Origin: a virus
Taxonomy: Duplodnaviria > Heunggongvirae > Uroviricota > Caudoviricetes
Reading direction: 5' to 3' (one strand)
DNA length: 15,726 nucleotides
IMG/VR virus record: IMGVR_UViG_2609459833_000012
Location: 1 to 15,726 of that record
Shown here: positions 12,952 through 13,379 of the stretch, in pieces
Position numbering within the stretch: position 1 is the first letter of the stretch
Layout: the number at the start of each line of letters is the position of its first letter
The notes under the pieces: generated by a model
Seen by the model: the letters and a program-made list of their open reading frames with translations, nothing else
Database searches by the model: none
What the model was told of the DNA's origin: nothing
Program-made: the position numbers and the translations under genes

Positions 12952-12976
12952 ATCGGCTGAACCTCAGCAACCAGTT

Positions 12977-12998
12977 GACGGGGACTTTCGTCCCCGTC
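12977..12998. other. Perfect 8-bp-stem hairpin between hok-like stop and 133-aa start
   Basis: GACGGGGA-CTTTCG-TCCCCGTC. On the plus strand it is followed by GCGGTTTTCC (weak U-tract). On the minus strand it sits in the 3' end of the hok-like transcript and 5' leader of the 133-aa gene. Confidence 0.5.
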
Positions 12999-13007
12999 GC
13001 GGTTTTC

Positions 13008-13148
13008 CTACTGCTTACACTGTAAGAACGCCGCAAACTCCGCTCCCCACAAATTCAGCCGGAACTCACACAGCGAACCGTGTAACATCCAGATGGTGAA
13101 GATTACCGTCATGCAAATTGTGACGGTGATAAGCGATTTTTGCGACAT
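13008..13148 (-). CDS. hok: Hok/Gef-family type I toxin (46 aa), unannotated small ORF
   Basis: Hand translation gives MSQKSLITVTICMTVIFTIWMLHGSLCEFRLNLWGAEFAAFLQCKQ. It has an N-terminal TM helix and a C-terminal SLCExR...E(V/F)AAF motif resembling Hok/HokA as I recall them. GGAGG lies 8 nt upstream and is partly sequestered in a hairpin. Confidence 0.65.
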   Translation of the reverse strand: MSQKSLITVTICMTVIFTIWMLHGSLCEFRLNLWGAEFAAFLQCKQ

Positions 13149-13302
13149 AGCGCTTGCCTCCTGAGTGGAGAGGCGCTAACCTTCTACTTGTCAAGGAAAG
13201 AAGTGTCAGGGCCTCGGGTTAACGTTAAAGTTGACTCGGGGCCTTTCCACATCAGGCCTTCAGGTTCACCTTCCAGCCATCAGCCGAAAGGCACCCGCGC
13301 AT

Positions 13303-13331
13303 AATCTACGATTTTTGCCCTGCACGGGCAA
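13303..13331 (-). promoter_or_regulatory. Candidate sigma70 promoter for the hok-like transcript
   Basis: Minus strand has TTGCCC, a 17-nt spacer, then TAGATT, about 155 nt upstream of the hok-like ATG. A weak match found by eye only. Confidence 0.2.
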
Positions 13332-13358
13332 CAAAAAACCCGCCATCACAGCGGGTTA
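13331..13358 (-). terminator. Rho-independent terminator of the lom-like gene
   Basis: Minus strand reads AACCCGC-TGTGATG-GCGGGTT followed by TTTTTTG, 22 nt downstream of the stop at 13380. Confidence 0.7.
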
Positions 13359-13379
13359 TGACATGTTGTCGGGTATTAC

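Follow-up and report, generated by a model that had tools for sequence, protein, structure and literature searches.

Among the closest described relatives of the locus considered here are hok/sok (parB) of plasmid R1 and hokW-mokW-sokW of phages Sp5 and 933W (L0137, L0144, and L0138). For R1, from which the definitions of the canonical hok elements are taken (PMC9841398), translation of Mok up to the hok Shine-Dalgarno (SD) sequence is mandatory. The hokW-sokW module of Sp5 assists lysis and phage release after treatment with mitomycin C, and the phage yield halves without it (PMC8621323). A dedicated survey of Hok peptides (bioRxiv 10.1101/2025.08.07.668861, 2025-26) catalogues a cluster 72, to which the toxin described below belongs, and deliberately leaves out mok, Sok, and the mRNA structure. 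Relative to that survey, these elements of cluster 72 are described only here.

In the window (the whole 15,726-nt stretch of viral DNA that was analyzed), the gap between a lom-like gene and a gene encoding a 133-aa protein very probably holds a type I toxin-antitoxin module of the hok/sok type that is intact, belongs to the 46-aa Hok subfamily (cluster 72), and is situated in a prophage late region. An earlier note on this DNA had placed an unannotated Hok-family locus in the 428-bp gap, and the coordinates of both flanking open reading frames (ORFs) agree with that placement (Table 1). Every molecular element that the note proposed was found, but the R1 model applies only in part here, as there is no conserved mok-like frame. 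"Unannotated" is true for older records such as AP000422 (VT2-Sakai), in which the locus is absent from the annotation and falls in the gap between genes cross-referenced to 933W L0128 and L0129; RefSeq/PGAP and the record of phage MN067333, on the other hand, annotate it, the former as "Hok/Gef family protein" (WP_000078907.1). The locus is therefore already known, both from RefSeq and from the survey catalogue, and it is real but ordinary, save for the apparent lack of a mok leader gene.

Table 1. Coordinates of the module and its surroundings in the window
Feature	Position	Strand	Description
Intergenic gap	12952-13379 (428 bp)		Flanked by 133-aa ORF 12550..12951 (-) and Ail/Lom ORF 13380..14114 (-)
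Rho-independent terminator ending the lom-like gene upstream	13333..13357	-	Terminator-like call in scan
Putative hok promoter	13303..13331	-	-35 TTGCCC 13331..13326, 17-nt spacer, -10 TAGATT 13308..13303
tac element, predicted 5' end of hok mRNA	13280..13296	-	GGGUGCCUUUCGGCUGA; onset of conservation, pairs with fbi in minimum free energy (MFE) and consensus folds
ucb-like box, to which tac would switch once the 3' end is trimmed	13238..13247	-	GAAAGGCCCC; invariant in 32 loci
Predicted Sok-like RNA, ~58 nt	13189..13246	+	Single-stranded 5' tail of ~20 nt (13189-13207), terminator hairpin 13208-13245 ending in UUU
Putative sok promoter	13154..13182	+	-35 TTGCCT 13154-13159, 17-nt spacer, -10 TAACCT 13177-13182
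SD-sequestering hairpin	13144..13178	-	SD (13161..13157) and start-codon A lie within UAGCGC/GCGCUA and UCUCC/GGAGG
dcb-like anti-SD, 5' arm of SD hairpin	13176..13167	-	GCGCCUCUCC
hok CDS, Hok cluster 72 peptide	13148..13008	-	46 codons plus stop; ORF list, Pfam, homologues
3' hairpin past the hok stop	12977..12998	-	GACGGGGAC-GAAA-GUCCCCGUC, 9 bp; flanking AACCG/CUGGU(U) helix
fbi element, partner of tac, end of conserved module	12943..12960	-	UCAGCCGAUAUGGCACCC; closing helices

The minus-strand ORF translates to 46 aa (MSQKSLITVTICMTVIFTIWMLHGSLCEFRLNLWGAEFAAFLQCKQ) and is preceded by a GGAGG SD sequence 8 nt 5' of its ATG, both as previously claimed. The peptide scores 33.2 bits (E = 4e-8) against Pfam PF01848 (HOK_GEF) over residues 8 to 44 of 46, which exceeds the gathering cutoff of 22, so that the resemblance to Hok is not a chance match. 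A single N-terminal hydrophobic segment (residues 6 to 22, LITVTICMTVIFTIWML; mean Kyte-Doolittle value, 2.32) corresponds to the proposed transmembrane helix. Every named protein among the 56 homologues of the peptide is called Hok/Gef, and the 46-aa subfamily occurs in E. coli, Shigella, and Salmonella. In the logo of the survey, M1, C16, T18, L30, C31, E32, and E41 are conserved in >80% of 1264 Hok peptides; according to the survey's own alignment rows (entry 1589), these positions are filled in our peptide by M1, C12, T14, L26, C27, E28, and E37. Within the subfamily alignment, C27 never varies, and L26, E28, and E37 hardly do. The peptide is identical to survey entry 72_1589, which was cloned as LRP157 for arabinose-induced toxicity assays and for which the survey records a native SD of GGAGG and the flag "HAC," read here as high-abundance cluster. 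The text reports 42 of 45 tested Hok homologues as toxic and names entries other than 72_1589 as the three nontoxic ones; going by that list of exceptions, 72_1589 would be toxic.

Among the NCBIfam models, the best match is that of HokA of E. coli K-12 (NF007290; 38.4 bits, E = 9e-10, residues 6 to 45). As the equivalog cutoff of this model is 89, orthology with HokA was rejected, and the survey lists HokA as cluster 93. The locus is also not hokW. VT2-Sakai (Sp5) carries both, with a cluster 72 ORF (100% identical) at 47015-47152 and hokW at 59970-59818, and the two differ in peptide as well as in site within the same phage. HokW is a 51-aa peptide that belongs to the HokD cluster of the survey (35_712) and is 36 to 38% identical to the 46-aa peptide; its gene is ~12.7 kb distant, on the strand opposite to that of the late genes, is accompanied by an annotated mokW of 70 codons and a sokW of 71 nt, and has been studied experimentally. 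What the two loci share, besides the phage type, is an identical (here putative) Sok promoter (TTGCCT-17-TAACCT, compared in VT2-Sakai) and homologous leader motifs (GGGTGC.., GAGGC, and AGGTTAGC..CTCT). With R1 hok/sok, the locus has in common a small Hok membrane toxin, closure of the 5' and 3' ends through tac and fbi, and, as predictions, a tac/ucb stem after 3' trimming, a nascent tac hairpin, and GAGGC/dcb pairing; the candidate cis-antisense Sok, with its own putative promoter and a leader target well upstream of the hok AUG, would be a further parallel. It differs from R1 in that mok is not conserved, the dcb-like segment is also the anti-SD of hok's GGAGG, and the peptide has 46 rather than 52 aa, with the C terminus AAFLQCKQ.

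The module is carried by a prophage of the Sepvirinae (933W/Sp5-like), in its late region; within the window this prophage is a fragment flanked by IS copies. The upstream ORF is matched by Pfam Ail_Lom, and its terminator lies just 5' of the hok promoter, as context outside the module. The hok gene is positioned just past the lom terminator, in the same orientation as the late genes. The module is also found in other places, near prophage ends.

The hok mRNA is predicted to span ~354 nt (13296..12943 on the minus strand). Sequence conservation sets in abruptly at 13296, a G that is seven nt downstream of the hok -10 box, and the Rfam sok model likewise starts at tac; homology among divergent loci stops at 12943. 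The 133-aa gene has its annotated ATG (12951..12949) inside the fbi element, so that the module lies mostly inside the gap that had been taken as its bounds but extends 9 nt beyond the left border at 12952. A further difference from R1 is that no terminator was recognizable 3' of fbi. In a consensus promoter scan with a threshold of 9/12, the putative hok and sok promoters reached 8/12 and 7/12, respectively, and neither was called. Both were retained because of their conserved position and the identity with sokW, not because of their match to the consensus: the hok hexamers hold their position in loci with unrelated surroundings (TTGCCG/TAGATT and TTGAAA/TAGAAT), and the TTG and TAACCT of the sok promoter vary little or not at all across 32 loci.

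The predicted full-length hok mRNA folds into a structure whose ends are closed upon each other (MFE, -154.3 kcal/mol; z = -6.78), and the consensus fold of 32 homologous loci gives the same closure. Across these loci 98.5% of cells are paired, versus 37 to 43% in slid controls, and 10 base pairs are altered on both sides, a number reached by none of 500 shuffles. In the tac/fbi helices (columns 1-7/361-367 and 10-15/351-356), 97 to 98% of cells are paired and two pairs are compensatory. The expectation of a heavily folded hok-type mRNA is thus borne out by both folding energy and covariation. The 3' hairpin (-21.9 kcal/mol; z = -5.37) shows compensatory changes in two stem pairs (an AU pair that is GC in 11 sequences and a CG pair that is AU or GC in 15); a perfect stem after the stop codon had been described and is present, with a length of 9 bp instead of 8 bp. 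The ucb-like box closes a hairpin onto GAGGCC in the full-length fold, and an outer helix equivalent to tac-ucb is also seen in the consensus alignment of RF01794 (sok). This Rfam model aligns over its full length (positions 1 to 157) to the hok-sense strand at 13296..13137 with 41 bits (E = 9.2e-8), short of the threshold of 59, in which the locus again departs from R1; at gathering thresholds no Rfam family matches the window. Other permissive Rfam matches (Trp and Leu leader, Hrs1, etc.) were dismissed, as they reflect the lom terminator.

These data bear on the idea that the locus is a decayed, nonfunctional remnant like many chromosomal hok copies. Fozo et al. found hok loci to be degenerated in some strains, one relative of the present locus (L026) lacks both promoter and tac, and the prophage in the window is a fragment between IS copies. 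However, the reading frame is unbroken and encodes exactly the peptide that the survey cloned for toxicity assays, the promoters on both strands fit the family consensus, as do tac, ucb, fbi, and the hairpins, and the module is at least 92% identical in inducible Stx phages. We consider decay very unlikely.

A plus-strand antisense RNA had been expected over the leader at about 13150-13300. A candidate gene for such an RNA is present, but the predicted transcript is narrower (~13189-13246). Its 5' end was assigned from that of its annotated homologue sokW, whose hexamers and spacing are identical. The -35 box of its putative promoter overlaps the hok SD on the opposite strand; the -10 box agrees with 3/6 consensus positions, and its equivalent in sokW is the box mutated by the "pro-less" primer YO-421. 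The proposed plus-strand hairpin followed by TTTCC was found, at 13210-13243, and its stability is much greater on the plus strand (-26.9 kcal/mol; z = -6.55) than on the minus strand (-12.2 kcal/mol; z = -1.54). Each variant was folded on both strands, since MAFFT misaligns the divergent hairpin tops structurally, and the plus strand was the more stable in all 17 distinct variants. The U tract that follows is short, at 3 nt. The perfect palindrome TTAACGTTAA is indeed inside the hairpin, at 13219-13228; a role as a protein-binding site was set aside because it is merely the apex of the plus-strand hairpin and is absent (replaced) in a second clade. In the leader, the stretch complementary to the predicted Sok covers positions -41 to -99, and the full Sok-target duplex has a predicted energy of -120.7 kcal/mol. 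The 5' tail of Sok is hypervariable among otherwise nearly identical loci, which may keep coresident copies from cross talk; there are complete genomes that carry 2 to 7 copies.

No mok-like overlapping ORF is conserved among 33 distinct loci in which the frame equivalent to mokW was examined. Upstream starts for this frame exist in some loci only, at three different places. In the window, this frame holds an ORF of 42 codons (TTG 13194 to 13066) that runs across the hok start and whose TTG is located in the Sok-complementary region. It was rejected as a conserved mok because this TTG is shared by only 3 of the 33 loci. In the commonest variant (the L003 type, with 9 copies, including that of Sp5 itself), a stop at -31 interrupts the frame and an upstream start is missing, and other loci have unrelated ATGs at -103 or -130. 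It is nevertheless conceivable that the module works exactly as in R1, with this leader translated, hok coupled to it, and Sok blocking the region of leader initiation. The overlap with the hok start, the location of the TTG inside the Sok target, and the obligatory translation of Mok in R1 would all fit. Besides the distribution of starts and stops just described, there is no SD before TTG 13194, and hok owns a strong GGAGG at ideal spacing, and an R1 mode therefore appears improbable. The lack of a conserved mok frame suggests that the hok SD itself, and not a leader peptide, is probably the point of control, a mechanism that departs from the tested R1 model because Mok translation is mandatory there.

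How such control could operate is suggested by the predicted folds. The earlier note had put the SD inside a hairpin, and it is there (13178..13144), although by itself this hairpin is not exceptional (-15.0 kcal/mol; z = -1.74). It is predicted in the full-length MFE fold, lost in 3'-truncated folds, and back once the Sok target is masked. All five 3'-truncated folds contain a tac-ucb stem, a prediction in which both sides are invariant across loci, and in nascent transcripts of 30 to 50 nt, tac is predicted to be held in a local hairpin (-15 to -18.7 kcal/mol). The plain unpaired probability of the SD barely differs among the predicted states (0.33 to 0.37), and the switch is visible only in the opening energy of the translation initiation region (TIR), which was used in its place because the former failed to separate the states. 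In the window, the predicted cost of opening the TIR is 14.8 kcal/mol in the full-length RNA, 9.9 kcal/mol after 3' trimming, and 13.8 kcal/mol with the Sok target masked; the corresponding values for three divergent loci are 14.5/7.2/12.1, 16.5/9.4/17.8, and 14.4/9.5/13.3 kcal/mol. Trimming of the 3' end is thus predicted to lower the cost by ~5 to 7 kcal/mol in four of four loci.

We tentatively propose, as a model that may be right but that we stop short of calling probable, that the cluster 72 loci represent a mok-less rewiring of hok/sok in which the dcb-like segment now serves as an anti-SD, 3' processing and Sok gate hok directly by refolding, and the locus forms a second hok/sok locus placed in the sense orientation in the late operon of Stx phages. 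Independently of this proposal, the folds point to the following course of events as our main reading. In the nascent transcript, the local hairpin would trap tac, and the completed full-length RNA would be closed and translationally inert. Slow 3' trimming would then take off fbi and let tac pair with ucb, which would free the segment GAGGC..CUGAC (13216..13206) for pairing with the anti-SD GGUUAG.GCCUC, and this capture of the anti-SD would make the hok ribosome-binding site cheaper to open by the amount given above. Sok bound to the GAGGC..CUGAC segment would cause the SD hairpin to re-form, and RNase III would, as in R1 and hokW, cleave the duplex of Sok and hok mRNA. Upon loss of Sok, which is presumably unstable, Hok would be made and the inner membrane would be damaged.

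Addiction or stabilization, the role originally suggested for the module, is one of three documented for hok/sok loci, and prophage stabilization, aid to lysis, and phage exclusion are all compatible with the data. Postsegregational killing that stabilizes the prophage or island, or abortive-infection defense against other phages, is a plausible function that we would put forward with reserve: plasmid hok/sok has been implicated in both maintenance and phage defense, the AP000422 record labels hokW "prophage maintenance," and hok genes are enriched ~4-fold in prophages, whereas a section title of the survey reports no enrichment of hok near defense systems and the segment in the window is already an IS-bracketed fragment. 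It seems somewhat unlikely that the module mainly aids host lysis upon induction instead of stabilizing the island, even though hokW-sokW of Sp5 provides a precedent for this (PMC8621323). The position of hok, codirectional with the late genes and just past the lom terminator, means that antiterminated late transcription would read through hok in the sense direction and against the sok promoter. However, tac would be internal in such read-through transcripts and the SD may stay closed, and the module also occurs in the other contexts near prophage ends.

As a discovery, the locus carries little weight, since it is annotated in RefSeq, catalogued in the survey, and has had its peptide cloned there for toxicity tests. 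Its remaining interest is modest. Sp5-type phages carry two hok/sok modules, one of them still missing from the annotation of classic Stx-phage records (VT2-Sakai AP000422). The only functional study deleted one of the two, hokW-sokW, and makes no mention of the cluster 72 locus (PMC8621323). The published hokW-sokW deletion strain retains the latter, which could mask or contribute to the phenotypes of that strain. The sense orientation in the late operon suggests a simple link from prophage induction to toxin expression, and a subfamily that seemingly has no mok offers a natural test case for control of hok mRNA that is free of a leader peptide.

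The 428-bp gap between the gene for a 133-aa protein and an Ail/Lom-family gene contains, as an earlier note had described, a 46-codon minus-strand ORF preceded by a GGAGG Shine-Dalgarno (SD) sequence. The encoded peptide, MSQKSLITVTICMTVIFTIWMLHGSLCEFRLNLWGAEFAAFLQCKQ, has one strongly hydrophobic segment (residues 6 to 22), in agreement with the single transmembrane helix proposed there. The suggested kinship with Hok is borne out by the Pfam Hok/gef profile (33.2 bits; gathering score, 22; E = 4e-8). The HokA equivalog is the top NCBIfam model for the peptide, yet it scores only 38.4, far under its cutoff of 89, and HokA orthology was rejected on that score. 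Judged by sequence, the peptide is a member of the Hok family and not a HokA orthologue. The 56 relatives returned by a database search constitute a close-knit subfamily of 46-aa peptides from E. coli, Shigella, and Salmonella; those named at source are all called “Hok/Gef family protein.”

Features of the hok locus and its borders (window coordinates)
Feature	Position	Strand	Remarks
133-aa ORF	12550..12951	-	Left border of 428-bp gap
Hairpin after hok stop	12998..12977	-	9-bp perfect stem; -21.9 kcal/mol, z = -5.37
hok ORF	13148..13008	-	46 codons
hok SD, GGAGG	13161..13157	-	8 nt ahead of ATG
SD hairpin	Contains 13161..13157	-	-15.0 kcal/mol, z = -1.74; alone not unusual
Putative sok -35, TTGCCT	13154-13159	+	TTG invariant
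Putative sok -10, TAACCT	13177-13182	+	17-nt spacer; nearly invariant
Predicted Sok	13189-13246	+	~58 nt; 5' end transferred from sokW
Sok hairpin	13210-13243	+	Followed by TTTCC; -26.9 kcal/mol, z = -6.55
Putative hok -10, TAGATT	13308..13303	-	17 nt from -35; G13296 seven nt downstream
Putative hok -35, TTGCCC	13331..13326	-	Position kept across loci
lom terminator	13357..13333	-	Terminator scan; directly upstream of hok locus
Ail/Lom-family ORF	13380..14114	-	Right border of 428-bp gap

The predicted limits of the hok mRNA rest on an alignment in which the window was set against 32 distinct relatives drawn from IMG/VR and GTDB genomes (99% down to ~51% identity). Conservation begins abruptly at GGGTGCC (13296) and ends at GGCACCC (12943), divergent loci align over 12943 to 13316/7 only, and the two hexamers of the putative hok promoter are the only ones upstream of the start that hold their position. 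For the resulting 355-nt RNA, the predicted fold has an energy of -154.3 kcal/mol (z = -6.78), and the termini of the RNA, tac (5', 13296..13280) and fbi (3', 12960..12943), pair with each other; RNAalifold with the 32 loci closes the RNA in the same way. When this structure is counted on the alignment, 98.5% of its cells hold standard pairs, versus 37 to 43% when the partners are slid. Both sides have changed at 10 pairs, a number reached in 0 of 500 shuffles; the fbi helix and the 3' hairpin each contain two of these pairs. The start-codon region, AUGUCGCAAAAAUCGCU, and the codons for GAEFAAF form a 16-pair helix with each other, which accounts for the nucleotide-level conservation of both; its sides are almost invariant among the aligned loci, and it offers no covariation evidence. 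On the hok-sense strand, positions 1 to 157 of the Rfam sok model (RF01794) cover the entire leader (13296..13137; E = 9.2e-8), with a score of 41 bits, under the curated 59. Both hairpins noted previously are present: the SD lies within one, and the other, after the stop codon, is perfect but has 9 rather than 8 bp. No terminator was found after fbi.

Some related copies are incomplete. In L026, unrelated sequence (1304 to 1420) stands in place of the promoter, tac, and the first third of the leader; the remainder, including the sok promoter and hok CDS, is intact, leaving a decapitated copy. Seven IMG/VR contigs (L044, L051, L052, L061, L066, L067, and L071) end exactly 3 nt past the hok stop, which suggests assembly or prophage-boundary breaks at a multicopy module.

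The putative sok promoter has the same hexamers and spacing as that of sokW in VT2-Sakai (AP000422), whose TAACCT -10 box is exactly the one mutated by the “pro-less” primer YO-421 in the hokW study (PMC8621323). The annotated 5' end of sokW lies 7 nt past the -10 box; transferred to the window, it predicts a Sok RNA that falls within the range of about 13150 to 13300 proposed earlier but is narrower. Predicted Sok consists of a tail of ~20 nt and then the plus-strand hairpin that had already been flagged, whose minus-strand version is less stable (-12.2 kcal/mol, z = -1.54). In each of the 17 distinct variants of this hairpin, the plus-strand form is the more stable (mean, -23.2 versus -13.1 kcal/mol), and the bias persists in a second clade with a wholly different upper stem. 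Few stretches of the module vary as much as the tail (13190 to 13207; columns 46 to 63 of locus alignment A4), even between loci with >92% identity elsewhere, and two loci from one IMG genome (L017 and L043; 2617271340) differ in it. This variability could represent selection for specificity, with no cross talk between coresident copies, or an unconstrained loop. A generic promoter scan called neither the hok nor the sok promoter; the sok -10 box agrees with the consensus at only 3 of 6 positions, and the Sok U tract is just UUU.

In the scheme for plasmid R1 (PMC9841398), a metastable 5' hairpin of the nascent transcript blocks premature translation, the full-length mRNA is closed by a tac/fbi stem, Sok binding is followed by RNase III cleavage of the duplex, and Mok must be translated as far as the hok SD. 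The predicted folds of the window locus mostly mirror this scheme. In nascent transcripts of 30 to 50 nt, tac is trapped in a local hairpin (-15 to -18.7 kcal/mol). Each 3' truncation lacking fbi moves tac onto an invariant box, GAAAGGCCCC (13247..13238), and pairs GAGGC..CUGAC with GGUUAG.GCCUC, leaving the SD only a 3-bp hairpin; the strong SD hairpin returns when the Sok-complementary stretch is masked. Plain unpaired probabilities scarcely differ between these states (0.33 to 0.37). The predicted cost of opening the ribosome-binding region differs consistently in four loci: for full-length RNA, RNA trimmed by ~30 nt, and trimmed RNA with the Sok target masked, it is 14.8, 9.9, and 13.8 kcal/mol in the window; 14.5, 7.2, and 12.1 in L003, the commonest variant; 16.5, 9.4, and 17.8 in L082; and 14.4, 9.5, and 13.3 in L042.

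In hokW, GAGGC-N7-ATG opens a 70-codon mokW, whereas the equivalent frame is not conserved among the aligned loci. A TTG at -46 (13194) occurs in the window and two near-identical loci only. In the commonest variant, which Sp5 itself carries, the frame is closed by a stop at -31 and start codons are absent upstream; elsewhere, ATGs are found at -103 or -130. The remaining frame lacks a start codon in most loci. The hok gene is served by an ideally spaced GGAGG of its own, for which the dcb-like segment is the anti-SD. The simplest reading is that the hok SD would be controlled directly, without a leader peptide, a model that departs from R1 genetics.

hokW-sokW of Sakai prophage 5 (Sp5) is the sole studied prophage hok locus and encodes a different, 51-aa peptide (PMC8621323). 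In AP000422, hokW, mokW, and sokW are annotated at 59815 to 60089 (L090 9815 to 10089). About 12.7 kb away lies an identical copy of the window's hok ORF (47015 to 47152, plus strand, as are the late genes); it sits between lom (933W L0128) and H0145 (L0129), in a gap that carries no annotation (L089 46783 to 47211). Identity of the window locus with hokW was rejected, since the peptides are only 36 to 38% identical and VT2-Sakai has both loci. On this sequence comparison, Sp5-type phages therefore carry two hok loci, and the published hokW-sokW deletion mutant still had a second hok/sok module.

Megablast against 5426 complete E. coli genomes found the locus in 1553 of them; it is also present in 198 phage records, mostly Stx2a-converting phages of Sepvirinae. 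The ORF had been called unannotated, which is true of AP000422; PGAP annotates it in complete E. coli genomes (e.g., WP_000078907.1), where the order lom–hok–hypothetical is kept. A bioRxiv survey of Hok (10.1101/2025.08.07.668861, version 2026-01-27) enters the identical peptide as 72_1589, gives GGAGG as its native SD, flags its cluster “HAC” (taken here as high-abundance cluster), and describes its cloning as LRP157/pAZ3 for arabinose-induced toxicity assays. The survey text reports toxicity for 42 of 45 homologues assayed and names 19_179, 60_1482, and 69_1540 as nontoxic, 72_1589 not being among them; by that account, the toxicity experiment proposed in the earlier note has already been done. 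It also reports ~4-fold enrichment of hok genes in prophages and places mok, Sok, and mRNA structure explicitly outside its analysis. The earlier description is accurate save for small details; the hok finding is real and its molecular reading correct, but it is already known. Near-identical copies of this E. coli phage locus (L083, L084, and L086) in assemblies labeled Xanthomonas pisi (an 857-bp contig, peptide 100% identical), a Planococcaceae MAG, and a Collinsella MAG are most likely contamination or misbinning.

At the window ends (1 to 1319 and 14408 to 15726) lie two copies of a 1,319-nt IS element in inverted orientation, 100% complementary to each other; each has a 402-aa IS256-family (Transposase_mut) ORF (72 to 1280, plus; 14447 to 15655, minus). 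Homology to an intact prophage is limited to 1315 to 14412; hok thus lies in a 13-kb fragment of a prophage late region with an IS copy on either side, an arrangement that could represent a composite-transposon-like unit or have arisen by IS-mediated inversion. This fragment includes a 2,788-aa ORF (1380 to 9746, minus), whose 8.4-kb E. coli EC2 counterpart is annotated “LPD38 domain-containing protein” and whose VT2-Sakai counterpart is H0150 (933W L0134). The annotated ATG of the 133-aa gene (12951..12949), whose product matches no Pfam family, lies inside fbi, so the hok mRNA 3' end and the initiation region of that gene share sequence, and tac-fbi pairing would sequester this region. The scan also calls a terminator-like site on the plus strand (12976 to 12999), formed by the hok 3' hairpin with CGGTTTTCCT after it; transcripts antisense to the 133-aa gene and bound for the hok CDS could terminate there.

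Homology and structure lend good support to the molecular mechanism (membrane toxin, antisense control, and RNA refolding). The prophage stabilization role proposed previously is plausible, and old annotations in AP000422 label hokW “prophage maintenance.” The sole experimental evidence for a prophage hok/sok locus points elsewhere, to hokW-sokW aiding lysis and phage release after induction (PMC8621323). The hok locus is codirectional with the late genes and just past the lom terminator, so antiterminated late transcription would cross hok in the sense direction and would run against the sok promoter; we offer such read-through as an idea only. What interest remains lies in three points: Sp5/933W-type Stx phages have a second hok/sok locus, which neither the classic phage record nor the sole functional study includes; this locus apparently lacks mok; and it is sense oriented inside the late operon.
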